Source of the DNA: a virus
Lineage: Duplodnaviria > Heunggongvirae > Uroviricota > Caudoviricetes
DNA length: 5,271 nt
Strand: one strand, 5' to 3'
IMG/VR virus record: IMGVR_UViG_2693429733_000017
Shown here piece by piece: positions 387 through 5,271 of the stretch. Position 1 is the stretch's first letter. The number at the start of each line of letters is the position of its first letter. Made by a program: the position numbers and the translations under genes. Below the pieces are notes generated by a model. The model was given only the letters and a program-made list of their open reading frames with translations. It ran no database searches and had not been told where the DNA came from.

Positions 387-422
387 TGAAGTGGCACACT
401 GAATTTGGCCACCTGAACAGAG
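387..422 (+). repeat. IS911 left terminal inverted repeat (IRL)
   Basis: TGAAGTGGCACACTGAATTTGGCCACC at 387 onward pairs imperfectly with the reverse complement of the right end (TGAAGTAGTCAACAAAAACTGGCCACC). Confidence 0.7.
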
Positions 423-458
423 GTGATATGCTCACCTCAGAACAACACAGGTGCTCCA

Positions 459-1635
<1,177 letters not shown>

Positions 1636-1706
1636 CCCTTGCTGGACTTGAACCAGCGACCTGGCGATTATGAGTCGCTCGCTCTGACCAACTGAGCTAA
1701 AGGGCC
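1636..1706 (-). tRNA. tRNA with anticodon CAT, tRNA-Ile2 (lysidine, AUA-reading) type, 3' end truncated by IS911
   Basis: Reverse complement reads GGCCCTTTAGCTCAGTTGGTCAGAGCGAGCGACTCATAATCGCCAGGTCGCTGGTTCAAGTCCAGCAAGGG. It folds as a cloverleaf (D stem GCTC/GAGC, anticodon loop CTCATAA, T stem GCTGG/CCAGC, T loop TTCAAGT). The 5' acceptor strand GGCCCTT needs AAGGGCC, but only AAGGG is present before the IS terminus. Resembles E. coli ileX/ileY from memory. Confidence 0.75.
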
Positions 1707-1715
1707 GAAGGCAGA

Positions 1716-1744
1716 ATAATAACCATATGTCATCACATCTGCAA
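1716..1744 (-). promoter_or_regulatory. Candidate sigma70 promoter for the tRNA gene
   Basis: Minus strand: TTGCAG (-35, plus 1739-1744), 17-nt spacer, TATTAT (-10, plus 1716-1721), about 9 nt upstream of the tRNA 5' end. Confidence 0.35.
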
Positions 1745-1792
1745 ACTCATCTGACCACCAGCACGTTTAACGTCCTGTGCCGTTTTTCAGGT

Positions 1793-1820
1793 ATAAAAAA
1801 ACCCGCATAAAGCGGGCTCT
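1793..1820 (-). terminator. Rho-independent terminator downstream of the Q-like gene (candidate tR'-type terminator)
   Basis: Minus-strand RNA: CCCGC-UUUAU-GCGGG followed by UUUUUUU (plus-strand A-run 1795-1801, stems 1802-1806 and 1812-1816). Confidence 0.6.
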
Positions 1821-1895
1821 TTCAAATGTCCATGTCTGCTATTCGCCTCGCGGTACAGCTTTGCGAAGCGTACAAGAATTGAAGCAGTTTTTACG

Positions 1896-2450
1896 TCAAA
1901 AAGCAATAACTTTTTTCTCTATACCAAAAGCCATAACCATTGGTTTGTACAAAATAAATTCTGCCACCTTTAGCCAATGCTCAATGCGTCTTTCACAGGT
2001 TCTTAAACTCCATTTCGGGTGTGCATCATTCAGCAGTTCAGCCATTTTGCGTTTGGTCATCCCCCGCCCCTCATACCGTTGCCGAAGGACGCTAATCAAT
2101 CCTGGATGCTCTGCCAGCACCTCACTTATGACCCGATCAATACATAACGCCTCTGCATCAGTACAATGCGCCAGCCAGCTCTTTTGCTTACCGTTAATCA
2201 TATCCCGCAAAAAAGCCTCAAGTTCAGACTTGTTCAGACCTGCTTTTTTCATCCTCCGGAGCGCCTCGTTAATTGCCGTTTTTGTCAGCTTTTTAGAGGT
2301 CAACATCAGGTTAAACATATTCCCCGTCTTACCGCCACCAATATACGACCAGCGCCCCCACATACGTAGTTTTCCCTGAATCCAGACACTTTCCAGCGTG
2401 GTGAGACGAAGGTGTTCTCCGCTTTTTCCTGTATTCGTTGGGTAAATCAT
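1896..2450 (-). CDS. Putative phage late-gene antitermination protein Q (Q-like)
   Basis: ATG at 2450 with strong SD (AGGAGG, 7-nt spacer); 184 aa MIYPTNTGKSGEHLRL... Shares motifs (WG.W, LxTSKxK, GMT) with my memory of DLP12/933W-type Q. Sits immediately after the YbcO-like gene and before terminator and tRNA, the Q position in lambdoid phages. The listed longer ORF to 2570 overlaps the upstream gene and lacks an RBS. Confidence 0.55.
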   Translation of the reverse strand: MIYPTNTGKSGEHLRLTTLESVWIQGKLRMWGRWSYIGGGKTGNMFNLMLTSKKLTKTAINEALRRMKKAGLNKSELEAFLRDMINGKQKSWLAHCTDAEALCIDRVISEVLAEHPGLISVLRQRYEGRGMTKRKMAELLNDAHPKWSLRTCERRIEHWLKVAEFILYKPMVMAFGIEKKVIAF

Positions 2451-2737
2451 AAATATCCCTCCTTTCTCCAGATTTCTTGTGTGCGAAAAACACCTTCTGC
2501 ATGCATCAGGCGTAATTCTTCTTTGGTGTAATCGCTGGTTTTTACCCGCCCGTCGATTAAATCGTGGCACGAGCTACAGGCAATCGCTGCCTGCATATCG
2601 TGTGGCTTTATCGCTGTTCCGCACGTTCCCGCCAGTCGGTAATGCGCCAGCACAGACGTTTCCGGATCGTGATTGCAGTAGCCAGGAATTCTGACGGTGC
2701 ACATCTGCCCCCGCGCCGCTTTACGTAAATCCACCAT
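2447..2737 (-). CDS. YbcO-like phage protein (DUF1364-type, putative Zn-binding nuclease)
   Basis: 96 aa MVDLRKAARGQMCTVRIPGYCNHDPETSVLAHYRLAGTCGTAIKPHDMQAAIACSSCHDLIDGR...; four-Cys pattern and overall similarity to DLP12 YbcO as I recall it. SD GGAG 8 nt upstream. Start overlaps the upstream stop (TAATG), stop overlaps the Q start (ATGA). Confidence 0.7.
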   Translation of the reverse strand: MVDLRKAARGQMCTVRIPGYCNHDPETSVLAHYRLAGTCGTAIKPHDMQAAIACSSCHDLIDGRVKTSDYTKEELRLMHAEGVFRTQEIWRKEGYL

Positions 2738-3336
2738 TACGCAAACTCCAGCAGCTGCGCGGCCACATTTTCGACTTGTTCCGGAGAGGAAAATTTACGG
2801 AACAGAATCCAGTTCCACAGCACATTCAGAACAGATTTATAAACCTGCTGAAACTCGGTTTCGTCCATATTCGCAAACGCGATAGATTTCGCCCGACACC
2901 CACGGCTACCGTCCGGATAAAAATGCTCGGTGTAAAATCCGGCCTGAATGGCTACCCACTCGCGGAAAGCCTCAAACGACTTTAGCAATGCCGTATCACT
3001 GGTTCTGCGTGTCGCAACTGTATTCAGATATTGCTCTGCGGCTTCGCTCAGAGCTGGCGTATGTTCCCGGCCTACTGATTCACACAGGTAATCAACGAAA
3101 CCGGACACCAGTTTTCGTTCGCGAGGCGTGATCGCCCCACCGACCGGAGTCCAGTAATCGAAACCCAGTTGCAGGAGTTTGAAAAAACGCTTGTGGAATG
3201 CGTAGTTACACACACGCTTAAAGTCTGCGTGTATCCACTCACCTATTTTGATTTGATGCAGAAAATCGCAACTCTCCGGCGTCGCCGGGAGAAGTAATCC
3301 GGAAGAGGTTTGTTTGACCAGTTGTATATGTGCCAT
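2737..3336 (-). CDS. YbcN-like phage protein (DUF1367-type, assigned from memory)
   Basis: ATG at 3336 with SD GGAG 7 nt upstream; 199 aa MAHIQLVKQTSSGLLLPATPESCDFLHQIKIGEWIHADFKRV... The listed ORF start at 3378 is a TTG overlapping the upstream stop with no SD. Confidence 0.55.
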   Translation of the reverse strand: MAHIQLVKQTSSGLLLPATPESCDFLHQIKIGEWIHADFKRVCNYAFHKRFFKLLQLGFDYWTPVGGAITPRERKLVSGFVDYLCESVGREHTPALSEAAEQYLNTVATRRTSDTALLKSFEAFREWVAIQAGFYTEHFYPDGSRGCRAKSIAFANMDETEFQQVYKSVLNVLWNWILFRKFSSPEQVENVAAQLLEFA

Positions 3337-3374
3337 CGGCTTTCTCCGGTGGCACGGTGTTACACAGCAGGAGT

Positions 3375-3662
3375 TCAATCCTGCTCAAGATTGTAGATGA
3401 GTTTATTCTTCAGCAAAAGCAGAAAACCAGCCTTAAAACCAATCTCTTTCAAAACCCGTAATGATGTGACAAATTCGTCCTCACGCAAAATAAAACCGTC
3501 CGTCAGAAGTCCATTACAAAAATAAAATAACACAGCACCGCTCTTCCTTTGTTGAGATTGCAAACATCTAATGCGGCAATGGCTGACAATCGCTCCATTC
3601 TCAACGCGCACAGCATAGAGGCCATTTTCACTAAAAATTTCACGCAATTCTTCGATTTTCAT
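3375..3662 (-). CDS. Hypothetical 95-aa protein, first gene of the nin-like operon, function unknown
   Basis: ATG at 3662 preceded by GGAAGGA; 95 aa MKIEELREIFSENGLYAVRVENGAIVSHCRIRCLQSQQRKSGAVLFYFCNGLLTDGFILREDEF... No family recognised. Occupies the position of rem in the Qin prophage (hokD-rem-ydfU-quuQ), as I recall that map. Confidence 0.5.
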   Translation of the reverse strand: MKIEELREIFSENGLYAVRVENGAIVSHCRIRCLQSQQRKSGAVLFYFCNGLLTDGFILREDEFVTSLRVLKEIGFKAGFLLLLKNKLIYNLEQD

Positions 3663-3743
3663 CTTCAGAATCCTTCCAGATAAATAGCTCTCCCCTGTTC
3701 GGGGTCCATCCCTCTTCTCCCTGCGCGCTACTTAAGTGAGTCG

Positions 3744-3771
3744 ATTCTATCTGCGAAGGTGCGCGAATCAA
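3744..3771 (-). promoter_or_regulatory. Candidate sigma70 promoter for the 95aa-YbcN-YbcO-Q operon
   Basis: Minus strand TTGATT (plus 3766-3771), 16-nt spacer, TAGAAT (plus 3744-3749), about 80 nt upstream of the ATG at 3662. Confidence 0.3.
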
Positions 3772-3789
3772 ATTCACCGGAAATAAACA

Positions 3790-3833
3790 ACAAAAAACCC
3801 GCCGAAACGCTGAGAGATCACAGCGATGGGCGG
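3790..3833 (-). terminator. Rho-independent terminator at the 3' end of the hok mRNA
   Basis: Minus-strand RNA has stem CCCGCC...GGCGGG (plus 3798-3803 / 3828-3833) with a nested CGCTG/CAGCG stem, followed by UUUUUU (plus A-run 3792-3797). Confidence 0.6.
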
Positions 3834-3839
3834 GTTAAG

Positions 3840-3855
3840 TGCGGGTGCGTTGAGG
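3840..3855 (-). promoter_or_regulatory. hok mRNA 3' fold-back-inhibition (fbi-like) element, complementary to the mRNA 5' end
   Basis: Plus 3840-3855 TGCGGGTGCGTTGAGG equals the reverse complement of plus 4226-4240 (TGCGGGTGCTTGAGG) apart from one bulged G, so the two pair within the minus-strand transcript. Confidence 0.45.
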
Positions 3856-3911
3856 ATGCCTGACACATCAGAGGTGGGCGGGGATGGGATCAGCTCCCCG
3901 CCCGGTCACTC

Positions 3912-4067
3912 TTACTTCCTGGATTCGTAGTCTACGAAGACAGCGACCTCCGTCTGGCCGGTTCGGATTCGTACCTCACAGAGGTCTTTCCTCGTTACCA
4001 GTGCCGTCACTATGACGGTTAAACAGATGACGATCAGGGCGATTAACATCGCCTTTTGCTGCTTCAT
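3912..4067 (-). CDS. hok: Hok-family type I toxin (small membrane peptide), closest to HokD/RelF and HokC/Gef
   Basis: 51 aa MKQQKAMLIALIVICLTVIVTALVTRKDLCEVRIRTGQTEVAVFVDYESRK, near-identical over most of its length to E. coli HokD/HokC as I recall them. ATG at 4067. Confidence 0.85.
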   Translation of the reverse strand: MKQQKAMLIALIVICLTVIVTALVTRKDLCEVRIRTGQTEVAVFVDYESRK

Positions 4068-4124
4068 AGCCTGCTTCTCCTTGCCTTTCGGCATGTAAGA
4101 GGCTAACCTACATGTGCAAAGCAT
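3912..4124 (-). CDS. mok: Mok-like in-frame upstream extension of hok (modulation-of-killing reading frame)
   Basis: ATG at 4124 with GAGG 8 nt upstream; 19-aa extension MLCTCRLASYMPKGKEKQA in frame with hok, the same arrangement as mokC/hokC in E. coli K-12. Confidence 0.55.
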   Translation of the reverse strand: MLCTCRLASYMPKGKEKQAMKQQKAMLIALIVICLTVIVTALVTRKDLCEVRIRTGQTEVAVFVDYESRK

Positions 4125-4188
4125 GAAATTGGCCTCAGATTAATGTTAAGCGTCTTGCCGGACGCGTAATGTTAACTGGGGCTTTTCT
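4117..4188 (+). ncRNA. sok: Predicted Sok-like antisense RNA (boundaries approximate)
   Basis: Plus-strand candidate promoter TTGCCT (4081-4086), 17-nt spacer, TAACCT (4104-4109). The transcript would be antisense to the mok start and SD (4122-4136), then an imperfect hairpin at 4141-4174 and a U-rich tract at 4182-4190. Architecture only; no direct homology confirmed. Confidence 0.3.
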
Positions 4189-4225
4189 CTATCTGCCTTT
4201 TGGTGTTCATGCCTGAAGCAGATAG

Positions 4226-4240
4226 CCTCAAGCACCCGCA
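4226..4240 (-). promoter_or_regulatory. hok mRNA 5' tac-like element, pairs with the 3' fbi-like element
   Basis: RNA 5' region GCGGGUGCUUGAGGCU...; complementary to the 3' element at 3840-3855. Confidence 0.45.
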
Positions 4241-4243
4241 GTC

Positions 4244-4273
4244 ATTCTACTTACCTCGCCAATATGAAATCAA
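4244..4273 (-). promoter_or_regulatory. Candidate sigma70 promoter of the hok/mok mRNA
   Basis: Minus strand TTGATT (plus 4268-4273), 18-nt spacer, TAGAAT (plus 4244-4249); predicted start about 4237-4239, right at the beginning of the tac-like element. Confidence 0.4.
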
Positions 4274-4294
4274 TCAGAAAGGTGCCCCATAAAA

Positions 4295-4981
4295 TCACTC
4301 CTTCTCTTCTTTACCGTAGTGGAGTTGACCAATTTTGATAAGAGGGCGTCCCTGAGATTTGCGGTGTAGATTGGTATCGCGCAGAGAATACACACAGCCA
4401 CAATATTCCTGCTGATAGAATTTTTCGCGCTTGCTGATTTCAATCATACGGGACGAGCCGCCCTGCTTGCGCCAGTTATAATCCCAGTACACCATGCCCG
4501 GATAATGCGCGACGGCTCGCCGCCCACAGTCGTTAACCTGCTGCATATTTTTCCAGCGTGAAATGCCCAGTGAACTGCTGATCACACTGAAACCATTTTC
4601 AGCGGCGTACAGCGCCGTCCGCTCAAAACGCATGTCAAAACACATGGTGCAACGGATCCCTCGTTCGGGCTCCCATTCCATTCCTTTGGCTCGTTCAAAC
4701 CAGTTGTCTGTGTCGTAATCAGCATCAATAAACGGCACGCCGTGTTGTTCAGCAAAGCGAATATTCTCATCCTTACGAATTAAATACTCTTTCTGAGGAT
4801 GAATGTTCGGGTTGTAGAAAAAGATGGTGTAGTCGATTCCCGAGGCCTGAAGCGCCTCCATCACCTCACCGGAACATGGAGCACAGCAAGAGTGCAGTAG
4901 TAGTTTGTTTGCCCCGTTTGGGAGCTCCAATTTGGGCCGTTTGAAATCAGCAACTGTCATAAATATGTTTATTGGGGTCAT
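4295..4981 (-). CDS. queH: QueH-like protein (DUF208 family, putative epoxyqueuosine reductase or related Fe-S enzyme)
   Basis: 228 aa with [48 protein letters not shown] and a C-terminal [10 protein letters not shown] Cys motif, all typical of QueH/DUF208 as I recall the family. Start uncertain: ATG at 4981 or 4960, neither with a clear SD. Confidence 0.8.
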
Positions 4982-5128
4982 AAAAATATCAAAGAGTGTA
5001 GCATTAGAACGGGGCTATCGGAAACAGATGTGTGACTGCTCCCCGCCCTTTCGGGCGGTCTCCTGATGATTTGAGGGTGCAGAAATCCCTCCGGTTAAGG
5101 ATTAAATTTTTAACAGTGCTAAATTTAA

Positions 5129-5269
5129 TTATTCAGTTCTGGATTTTGTCGCCCTGCGTATCCGCGCTTTCGCGTTACGCTCAATCTGTATCAGCTTTTC
5201 TATATTTCTCCGCCTTTCCTGTTCCTCCTGGCGCAATAGCCTTACATCATCTGCCAGTCTGGTTTCTCT
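5129..5269 (-). CDS. Possible 3' end of a gene whose start lies beyond the window (low confidence)
   Basis: Minus-strand frame is open from the window edge to TAA at 5129-5131: ...RETRLADDVRLLRQEEQERRRNIEKLIQIERNAKARIRRATKSRTE. Only 46 codons, so it could be chance; rich in AGA/AGG/ATA codons. Confidence 0.2.
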   Translation of the reverse strand, partial: RETRLADDVRLLRQEEQERRRNIEKLIQIERNAKARIRRATKSRTE

Positions 5270-5271
5270 TT

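Follow-up and report, generated by a model that had tools for sequence, protein, structure and literature searches.

Late-gene region in a defective Shigella sonnei prophage of the Rac/lambda-like type, with IS911 adjoining a truncated tRNA-Ile gene

Q cassettes of lambdoid phages, as defined earlier (bioRxiv 10.1101/651190) and as known for Q21 (6p18/6jnx) and Q933W, consist of a Q gene, a promoter, a conserved block, an intrinsic terminator and the late genes, in that order. Lambda 6S RNA and StxS are short transcripts that run from pR' to tR' in such systems (PMC7547250). Further, Stx2 converting phage I (AP004402, 933W-type) carries Q933, pR', tR', ileZ-argN-argO and stx2AB in succession. 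The region that we describe here agrees in layout with the Q cassette definition: it is the late-gene switch, on the minus strand, of a defective Shigella sonnei prophage of the Rac/lambda-like type, and as such it is ordinary. The Q gene, the terminator, the tRNA and the promoter-like site upstream of the tRNA were all found on the minus strand, at the positions where the initial annotation had placed them. The window, which is the whole stretch of DNA analysed, is an entire draft contig of 5,271 bp (CXDM01000209.1, assembly GCA_001253895.1), and both of its ends sit in repeats.

IS911 and its two flanks

Positions 387-1635 are occupied by a complete IS911 of 1249 bp on the plus strand, the right end of which abuts the remnant of the tRNA gene. 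The element is 99.8% identical over its 1249 bp to annotated IS911 (IS3 family) and has the same orfA/orfB frameshift arrangement, with orfA at 459-761 and orfB, in frame, at 788-1627, both on the plus strand; Pfam searches with these reading frames returned HTH_Tnp_1 and rve. The proposal that the sequence after the tRNA had been replaced by IS911 was thereby borne out. However, the insertion departs from the usual IS911 pattern in that its flanks are unequal, TTC at 384-386 and CCC at 1636-1638, without the 3-bp target duplication, and sequence was therefore lost. Closed genomes that carry the identical tRNA/IS911 junction likewise have unequal flanks and lack ~375 bp of the prophage, the sequence resuming ~375 bp further on in a non-coding spacer, with the holin, lysozyme and Rz genes kept. 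As judged from these alignments, the event is not a simple IS911 insertion but an insertion together with an adjacent ~375-bp deletion. An exact-match scan for the junction in a species-representative genome collection gave no match.

The left part of the window is of other origin. Its first 41 bp (1-41) are the terminal 41 bp of IS2, so placed that the contig end lies inside the repeat, and they have 100% matches beside annotated IS2 transposase genes (L002, L005 and L009). Positions 42-386, on the minus strand, hold an internal fragment of a gene of ~610 aa, assigned to an unrelated integrase-bearing (satellite or P4-like) island; the fragment shows 95.5% identity to the interior of a hypothetical gene of E. 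coli LZHX12, which has integrase, "baseplate" and capsid genes as its neighbours. By these sequence matches the segment 42-386 is no continuation of the prophage.

Whether the prophage, from 1636 on, is truly joined to the left part (1-386) is another matter, and we consider the chances evenly balanced that the join is an assembly artefact produced through collapse of the multi-copy IS911, in which case the actual chromosome would still have the holin side of the prophage after this copy of IS911. A draft contig with repeats at both ends makes up the whole window, IS911 is present at up to 25 places per genome, and closed relatives have the two flanks at separate loci, with the fragment 42-386 found near proBA/phoE in S. 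sonnei-type genomes and having no IS911 beside it. Against this, the junction 386/387 must have had read support somewhere in the source strain, and S. sonnei genomes often rearrange at IS copies, so that the join may be that of a real recombinant. A short draft contig that passes through an insertion sequence should not be taken to show what adjoins what in the chromosome.

The Q-type gene, its putative promoter and the terminator

The gene at 1896-2450 (minus strand) encodes a Q-type late-gene antiterminator of 184 aa that belongs primarily to the DUF1133 family (PF06576, E=2e-107). The assignment of a Q-like gene in the initial annotation was upheld by two further matches. The protein matches Phage_antitermQ (PF06530) with 29.4 bits, the cut-off being 26, over profile positions 19-113 of 118, and phage 21 Q (6p18/6jnx) was the sole meaningful match in the PDB (E=4e-4 when the sequence was used by itself, 2.7e-5 when a family profile was used), in an alignment that takes in the motif W..G.L..WG.W.Y in the N-terminal part as well as the last 85 residues. 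Of the 120 homologues listed, nearly all match both PF06576 and PF06530 in precomputed assignments. An hhalign comparison of the family profile with Q933 was weak (E=0.008, probability 5%) and too weak to use alone, and the AlphaFold2 model of the protein was of low confidence (mean pLDDT 56.7, pTM 0.42); a Foldseek search of the PDB with this low-confidence model gave no match with E<1. We take DUF1133 from these comparisons to be a distant branch of the Q21/Q933W family, its likeness to characterised Q proteins being marginal.

Gene order is consistent with this assignment. The Q gene shares one operon with the YbcO/DUF1364 gene (2447-2737, minus strand; PF07102, E=7.7e-45) and the DUF1367 gene (2737-3339, minus strand; PF07105, E=2.6e-95), in which stops overlap starts, the ATG of Q overlapping the stop of the YbcO gene by 4 nt. 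The order in intact relatives is DUF1367, YbcO, Q, tRNAs, holin, lysozyme and Rz, and Q is always the last gene ahead of the tRNA/lysis region. GenBank phage records name the product antitermination protein Q; a search for experimental literature on DUF1133 proteins found no paper. Family members can be treated as Q-type antiterminators, with a promoter/terminator unit that would start at the gene's own stop codon.

That unit begins with a putative late promoter, pR', at 1906-1878 on the minus strand, the -35 element of which, TTGCTT (1906-1901), overlaps the Q stop codon and is followed after a 17-nt spacer by a TG-extended -10 element, TTCAAT (1883-1878); transcription is predicted to start near 1871. 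A consensus promoter scan of the window listed 4 promoter-like sites where 5.3 were expected, which is not significant by itself, and promoter assignments were therefore made from conservation. The pattern scan did not list pR' because the proposed -10 element does not have the highly conserved A at position 2. Yet the block of -35, 17 nt and -10 is kept at the same place in 38 distinct sequences downstream of Q, while the 3' coding sequence of Q itself diverges, and in a second type of relative a near-consensus TTGACT-18-TATATT is aligned to the very place of pR'. It is on these 38 relatives that the hexamers and the start site are putatively assigned.

An intrinsic terminator lies at 1793-1820 (minus strand), where the initial annotation had called one. 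It consists of a GC core, CCCGC-UUUAU-GCGGG (1816-1802), followed by a run of U7 (1801-1795), and it folds with -18.7 kcal/mol (z=-4.5), none of 200 shuffled sequences folding as well. A simple terminator pattern scan missed it, apparently because the U residues are paired with an A tract further upstream. The relatives have a hairpin and T-run terminator at the same position in the 38 distinct sequences, with stem sequences that differ. With pR' at 1906-1878, this terminator would be tR', and a short transcript of ~77 nt (1795-1871, minus strand) is predicted, made up of a hairpin at its 5' end (1870-1843), an unpaired linker and the terminator hairpin with its U tail. The fold of 1871-1793 has -30.9 kcal/mol (z=-4.6). 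Its 5' hairpin stays a prediction, since the relatives contained no double compensatory changes in 1870-1843, only changes that preserve wobble pairs or disrupt the ends.

The initially transcribed block, TTCGCAAAGCTGTAYCGCGAGGCGAA, is kept across relatives, and we observed that it is near-invariant, with the linker and the U-tailed terminator also kept, in many prophages of E. coli, Shigella and Salmonella.

An Rfam match to isrK, a Gifsy-1 small RNA, at 1796-1869 was rejected: it scored 19.9 bits where the gathering score is 50, the Trp leader and OrzO-P scored equally there, and the match was driven by the terminator. In this prophage type the genuine isrK is found at another place (L001 20376-20452, 57.6 bits). 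The edges of the rejected match agreed with the predicted transcript boundaries.

Conservation of the short transcript could reflect a function of the RNA rather than, or besides, Q loading. That the ~77-nt RNA may be a trans-acting small RNA of the Hfq type, by analogy a DUF1133-Q counterpart of StxS, strikes us as conceivable but doubtful.

The reading of the terminator as tR' has to be weighed against another, in which the 1793-1820 hairpin does no more than close the early-right (Q) operon, late transcription starts instead from a Q-responsive element at 1745-1716, upstream of the tRNA, and tR' lies beyond the tRNAs; the late transcript would in that case open with the tRNAs. The element (minus strand) can be written as TTGCAG-17-TATTAT or TTTGCA-18-TATTAT. 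It is the only site in the region that the consensus scan listed, and in the intact relative strong terminator-like hairpins are indeed present downstream of the tRNAs (L001 11502-11483 and 11148-11122). However, Stx2 phage I, L034, L036 and L098 all carry the motifs TTGC.G and GTTATTAT unchanged ahead of ileZ. The element is thus common to phages with unrelated Q types, among them 933W-type phages in which Q is distantly related (Q933 scores 170 bits with PF06530, against 29 here) and in which pR' and a terminator are annotated upstream of it. We therefore assign it to the tRNA module rather than to a Q-specific late promoter. Moreover, the block from the Q stop codon to the hairpin accompanies the Q gene from one relative to the next, is a near-consensus promoter in one type of relative, and is kept together with the hairpin in relatives that have no Ile tRNA (683R6, APEC O1 and Rac-SA53). 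On this evidence we think it improbable that the late promoter is the tRNA-proximal element, and we continue with pR' over the Q stop codon. As for the initial annotation's proposal that the element is a promoter of the tRNA itself, the scan listed it, but not above chance; its conservation upstream of ileZ is what speaks for the proposal.

The tRNA remnant and the content of intact relatives

The tRNA gene (1636-1706, minus strand) is a 3'-truncated tRNA-Ile2 of the ileZ/ileX type with anticodon CAT, of which 71 of 77 nt are left. ARAGORN called a tRNA at 1633-1706 with anticodon cat at position 35, and the Rfam tRNA score was 59.3 bits. The last three bases of the ARAGORN call belong to the IS911 end, and intact copies can be aligned only as far as AAGGG at 1636. 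Because homology to intact relatives stops there, the tRNA has lost its last six bases, CCACCA (C71, C72, A73 and CCA), and the IS911 end TGAAGT stands in their place. A comparison of the intact homologue with the gene of the Stx2 phage, which other records name ileZ, gave 74/77 identities, and RefSeq annotates the intact copy as tRNA-Ile. In tRNA-Ile2 the CAU anticodon reads AUA after lysidine modification. TilS reportedly (Ikeuchi et al. 2005) distinguishes tRNA-Ile2 from tRNA-Met by the pairs C4-G69 and C5-G68, both of which are present in the acceptor stem here (GGCCCTT...AAGGG). The tRNA was thus of the type that had been proposed, but it is not intact, IS911 abutting position 71, and the copy in the window is probably a pseudogene.

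It might be supposed that the truncated tRNA is nonetheless made and used, IS911 supplying U71, G72 and A73 and the CCA being added post-transcriptionally. The end so supplied would give a G2-U71 wobble pair, a G1-G72 mismatch and the correct discriminator base; a full cloverleaf is still called by ARAGORN and Rfam; and the damage spares the promoter-like site, the anticodon arm and both acceptor-stem pairs, C4-G69 and C5-G68. Nevertheless, there is the terminal mismatch, CCA is not encoded, and no terminator is nearby, so that the transcript would run antisense into IS911. In addition, paralogous four-tRNA clusters are intact in other prophages in closed genomes of the group (L006, L008 and L014), and L011, from the same closed genome as L012, is likewise an intact paralogous cluster, so nothing selects for the truncated copy. 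We accordingly regard continued use of this tRNA as quite unlikely, and treat the copy as a probable pseudogene.

The initial annotation had regarded the cargo that once followed the tRNA as unknown, perhaps a toxin. In the intact prophage of FDAARGOS_944, which is 99.8% identical, tRNA-Ile is followed by three more tRNAs, Arg(TCT), Thr(TGT) and Gly(TCC), and then by a non-coding spacer of ~680 bp and the holin, lysozyme and Rz genes, and by nothing else. Between tRNA-Gly and the holin gene of the intact relative we counted 6 terminator-like hairpins, where 1.6 were expected. Related prophages thus pass from the tRNAs essentially straight to the lysis genes, without cargo. All viral-contig relatives with a Q that is 98-100% identical and with enough downstream sequence have Ile-Arg-Thr(-Gly) tRNAs and neither stx nor epl, and neither the window nor the intact and near-identical relatives contained a homologue of stx or epl. 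Toxins do occupy the slot after this same Q type (stx2AB in L034 and in at least 30 closed E. coli genomes; eplBA and eltIIa in Rac-SA53), and sequence was lost at IS911, but these toxins occur only in more distant relatives, the loss was of ~375 bp only, and the idea that a cargo gene, for instance one for a toxin, disappeared in the IS911 event is exceedingly improbable and already contradicted by the sequence data just given. A possible false lead is thereby removed, in that this S. sonnei prophage remnant has no lost toxin; the correction matters little beyond annotation.

Working of the switch and comparison with known systems

Taken together, these observations suggest the following scheme, which as a whole we consider very probable. 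Q is the last gene of the early-right operon. Transcription from pR', over the Q stop codon, would end ~77 nt on at tR' unless Q had been loaded on RNA polymerase at a promoter-proximal pause; the Q-modified polymerase would then read through tR', the four-tRNA cluster and the further terminators into the holin-lysozyme-Rz genes. The codons for the Ile-CAU, Arg-UCU, Thr-UGU and Gly-UCC tRNAs all end in A, and the host uses them seldom but the phage more often: per 1000 codons, the prophage genes have 8.6-12.2 ATA, 5.2-11.2 AGA, 11-16 ACA and 12.6-13.1 GGA, the E. coli averages being roughly 4-5, 2-3, 7 and 8, respectively. The tRNA cluster may be active in the lysogen as well, given the conserved promoter-like site that it carries. 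In the present lineage, IS911 lies against position 71 of tRNA-Ile beside the ~375-bp deletion, which took the 3' end of that tRNA, the three other tRNAs and ~135 bp of spacer, and no toxin or other cargo.

With respect to the Q21 and Q933W cassettes, the present one differs in its primary family, DUF1133, in the position of the putative promoter over the Q stop codon, and in the predicted terminated transcript of only ~77 nt. A constitutive late promoter, immediate termination and a short hairpin-rich RNA with a U tail, as in lambda 6S RNA and StxS, are predicted here, but we saw no sequence likeness between this region and the Q933-type pR'-tR' region from which StxS arises. Stx2 converting phage I shares the annotated order of -35, -10, terminator and ileZ, as well as GTTATTAT upstream of the tRNA; in contrast, its Q933 is a canonical PF06530 protein, and its pR' region and terminator are unrelated in sequence. 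Rac-SA53 (KU052037), an LT-IIa/Epl toxin prophage, has a Q of the same family (69% aa identity) and the same upstream order of hok, rem, DUF1367, ybcO and q, but differs in having the eplBA pertussis-like toxin genes and no tRNAs in the slot after Q, other holins, and eltIIa after the endolysin gene.

The Stx-phage layout that the initial annotation had recognised proved to be homologous and not merely analogous. The IMG/VR Stx2 contig L034 contains a Q with 91% aa identity, the post-Q promoter block, the terminator at the same place, the tRNA promoter-like site, a near-identical tRNA-Ile(CAU) and stx2A/B, and among the closed E. coli genomes that combine a DUF1133 Q with stx2 in one locus are O178:H19 2012C-4431 and O91:H21 FWSEC0008. 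In these Stx2 prophages ileZ, argN(TCG) and argO(TCT) are followed by stx2AB, and a DNA methyltransferase is often inserted after Q, whereas in the present prophage type Ile, Arg(TCT), Thr and Gly tRNAs lead to the lysis genes with no toxin between them. The DUF1133-type Q would be one of the Q types that control stx2 in some Shiga-toxin-producing E. coli.

Gene content and ends of the contig

The window corresponds, in reverse complement, to the complete 5,271-bp draft contig CXDM01000209.1 (assembly GCA_001253895.1), and the nearest named proteins originate from Shigella sonnei. All of its prophage genes lie on the minus strand, in the following order: QueH (4295-4981 as an ORF), an epoxyqueuosine reductase involved in tRNA queuosine modification; hok (CDS 3912-4064; Pfam E=4e-23); a Rem-like gene of 95 aa (3375-3662); DUF1367 (2737-3339); YbcO/DUF1364 (2447-2737); and the 184-aa DUF1133 protein, Q (1896-2450). 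The sok/leader RNA of hok occupies 4062-4237 on the same strand (117 bits with the Rfam sok model), and together they form a complete type I toxin-antitoxin locus, hok/sok, at 3912-4237. The QueH gene is kept in many E. coli relatives and belongs to the early region of the prophage, which also carries the tRNA cluster.

To the left of the prophage are a complete IS911 (387-1635; 99.8% identity to annotated copies), then a 345-bp piece of a gene unrelated to it (42-386) and, at the contig end, the last 41 bp of IS2 (1-41). The fragment is an internal part of a gene of ~610 codons from an integrase-bearing island of other E. coli, and in closed S. sonnei-type genomes it is located near proBA/phoE with no adjoining IS911. 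In some of those genomes another IS breaks it at 291-295; in S. sonnei 53G-type closed genomes (L016 and L017, 8730-9993) the splitting element is of the IS3 family, with a 5-bp overlap. This element is missing from the window and from a further compared locus, L018, so the window strain represents a different IS-insertion lineage.

Both contig ends lie in repeats, namely the IS2 sequence on the left and, on the right, 229 bp (5043-5271) that recur at 100% identity in a second prophage, one at the Rac site (L006-L010, L014). Such repeat-bounded ends are typical of short-read contig breakage. Because the ends are repeats and IS911 is multi-copy, how far 1-386 can be linked to the prophage depends entirely on the assembler's route across a 1.25-kb repeat. 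The join may be an assembly artefact or a true IS911-mediated rearrangement, and either way it carries no information on prophage cargo.

Q protein and the probable late promoter region

The Q-like gene of the initial annotation is real: its product matches DUF1133 (Pfam E=2e-107), exceeds the threshold of Phage_antitermQ, the Pfam model of the Q21/Q933W family (29.4 bits vs 26), and has phage 21 Q as its only meaningful relative in the PDB (E=4e-4 by sequence, 2.7e-5 with a 30-sequence profile). Profile comparison with Q933 gave a collinear, weak match, and a structure model of Q was too poor in quality for fold comparison. The protein is present in 3,743 indexed blocks of the contig collection. 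In many relatives from E. coli, such as APEC O1 and strain 042, the match to the prophage extends only rightward of window position 2057, which places a recombination boundary inside the Q gene; the last ~54 codons of Q and the downstream promoter block travel jointly as a module. In the Salmonella prophages L107-L109 (25-549, 4001-4543), the early-right region has a pair of Q-family genes, the DUF1133 Q and, ~3.5 kb upstream of it, a canonical PF06530 gene of 174 aa (116 bits).

We compared 170 bp around the Q stop codon from 83 loci, which gave 38 distinct sequences. Most of these contain a conserved block despite divergence of the Q 3' coding sequence: a -35-like hexamer (TTGCTT, TTGATT or TTGCAA) overlapping or just before the stop codon, 17 nt, a TG-extended TTCAAT and, next after it, a near-invariant GC-TTCGCAAAGCTGTAYCGCGAGGCGAA. 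In the relatives, a hairpin and T run follow ~20 variable bases further on, with stems that vary by group (CCCGC/GCGGG with different loops; CCCGT/GCGGG). A second type of relative has a hairpin at the same position with wholly different stems (ACACGC/GCGTGT, GACGCG/CGCGTC, ACCGC/GCGGT), and its near-consensus TTGACT-18-TATATT aligns exactly on the TTGCTT/TTCAAT positions. Judged by this conservation, the block at the Q stop codon is most likely the late promoter pR', with a putative -35 at 1906-1901, a -10 at 1883-1878 (TTCAAT, which is without the usual A at position 2) and a start near 1871, and the minus-strand terminator at 1820-1793 is most likely tR'. The latter had been noted earlier and proved to be strong on folding (-18.7 kcal/mol, z=-4.5). 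This layout agrees with the definition of a Q cassette, which comprises the Q gene, pR', a pause element, a terminator and the late genes (bioRxiv 10.1101/651190); the annotated -35, -10, terminator and ileZ of Stx2 phage I are in the same order.

In the mechanism that we propose, pR' would be constitutive, and polymerase would halt at tR' to give an RNA of ~77 nt. The 1871-1793 segment is predicted to fold as a 5' hairpin joined by a single-stranded linker to the terminator (-30.9 kcal/mol, z=-4.6). Q supplied by the early operon would load at a promoter-proximal pause, with a -10-like AAAGCT or CAAAAT around +10 to +15 as the candidate site. Polymerase carrying Q would then pass tR', the tRNA genes and at least 2 more terminator-like hairpins ahead of the holin gene. 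In the window lineage, the switch would be intact as far as tR', but the tRNA set beyond it is no longer complete. It seems to us improbable that the conserved short pR'-tR' RNA acts as a small regulatory RNA in the manner of StxS (PMC7547250).

The truncated tRNA and the IS911-associated deletion

The ileZ-type tRNA described earlier has the CAT anticodon assigned to it, and it is not intact. Its intact homologue, labelled tRNA-Ile in RefSeq, is identical to ileZ of an Stx2 phage at 74/77 positions; in alignment, identity to intact copies stops after AAGGG at 1636, and the final six bases, CCACCA, are swapped for the IS911 end, TGAAGT. The ARAGORN call, which reaches 1633, takes three bases from IS911. 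The anticodon arm survives in the remnant, as do the pairs C4-G69 and C5-G68; since G1 and G72 are mismatched and CCA is not encoded, the gene is probably a pseudogene. The candidate tRNA promoter did not stand above chance as a pattern, and its support comes from conservation in relatives: the motifs TTGC.G and GTTATTAT occur unchanged ahead of ileZ in Stx2 phage I and at three further loci. This element is common to phages with a canonical PF06530 Q (170 bits), and therefore is part of the tRNA module and not of the DUF1133 Q.

E. coli FDAARGOS_944 carries the same prophage (locus L001) at 99.8% identity across window 1636-5271. There, Q is followed by tRNA-Ile, tRNA-Arg(TCT), tRNA-Thr(TGT), tRNA-Gly(TCC), a ~680-bp spacer, the lysis genes (class II holin, lysozyme RrrD and an Rz-type lysis protein) and then head genes. 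The spacer (L001 11081-11761) contains no credible ORF; on its late strand we found 6 terminator-like hairpins vs 1.6 expected, including those at 11502-11483 and 11148-11122 (10 pairs). The unknown cargo that might have been lost beyond the tRNA is thus not borne out, since the intact relative shows only tRNAs, spacer and lysis genes. The four tRNAs decode AUA, AGA, ACA and GGA, codons used in the prophage genes at 1.5 to 4 times the E. coli average. At L002 7764-7835 (E. coli RMDEC332) the fourth tRNA is called tRNA-Val(TAC) and not tRNA-Gly(TCC); its anticodon loop is altered and its 3' acceptor arm has lost 1 nt, so the gene has either switched anticodon or is in decay.

Window 387-5271 is found at 99.94% identity in two closed genomes (L009, L012), with the same tRNA/IS911 junction. 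Past IS911 the prophage picks up in the pre-holin spacer, ~375 bp downstream of the break. IS911 thus inserted with loss of the neighbouring sequence, namely the 3' end of tRNA-Ile, the three other tRNAs and ~135 bp of spacer. No target duplication flanks IS911 in the window or the closed genomes. Intact paralogous four-tRNA clusters are present in other prophages of closed genomes of this group, one (L011) in the same genome as L012 and three (L006, L008, L014) from other genomes.

The window prophage lineage is riddled with IS elements. At least 3 independent IS911 insertions lie in the tRNA-to-holin interval: inside tRNA-Ile in the window type, after tRNA-Thr in L032 (4578-5782), and between tRNA-Gly and the holin gene, in opposite orientation, in L011 (12051-13303). 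From these positions, the interval looks like a local IS911 hotspot.

Elsewhere in L001, Rfam RNA matches were observed at 20376-20564 and 25312-25490; a true isrK (57.6 bits) and a C4 antisense RNA (75.7 bits) adjoin a Rha-family gene, and RalA antitoxin RNA (216 bits) is near the integrase end. A DedA-family membrane protein gene (9301-9813) separates the lysis cassette from the terminase genes; it runs on the opposite strand and is moron-like cargo in another slot of this prophage.

Comparison with Stx phages and other toxin phages

The likeness to Stx phages that the initial annotation proposed turned out to be closer than expected. In the stx2-bearing viral contig L034, Q is 91% identical to the window Q, the post-Q block is the same and a terminator stands at the corresponding position. 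The promoter-like site of the tRNA is shared as well, and after it come ileZ-argN-argO and then stx2A/B, which encode proteins 100% identical to their Stx2 phage I counterparts. In at least 30 closed E. coli genomes a DUF1133 Q shares its locus with stx2, and a DNA methyltransferase usually separates that Q from the tRNAs; none of the GenBank phage records named as Stx-converting carries this Q. The element is of a known kind and lies in a known, widely distributed prophage; the features first noted were confirmed, the reading of the architecture was right and that of a missing cargo was wrong. In the LT-IIa/Epl toxin prophage Rac-SA53, a Q of the same family is followed by the eplBA pertussis-like toxin genes. 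Since toxin operons follow the DUF1133 Q in these other phages, the slot is a genuine cargo site, which in the window lineage held only tRNAs.
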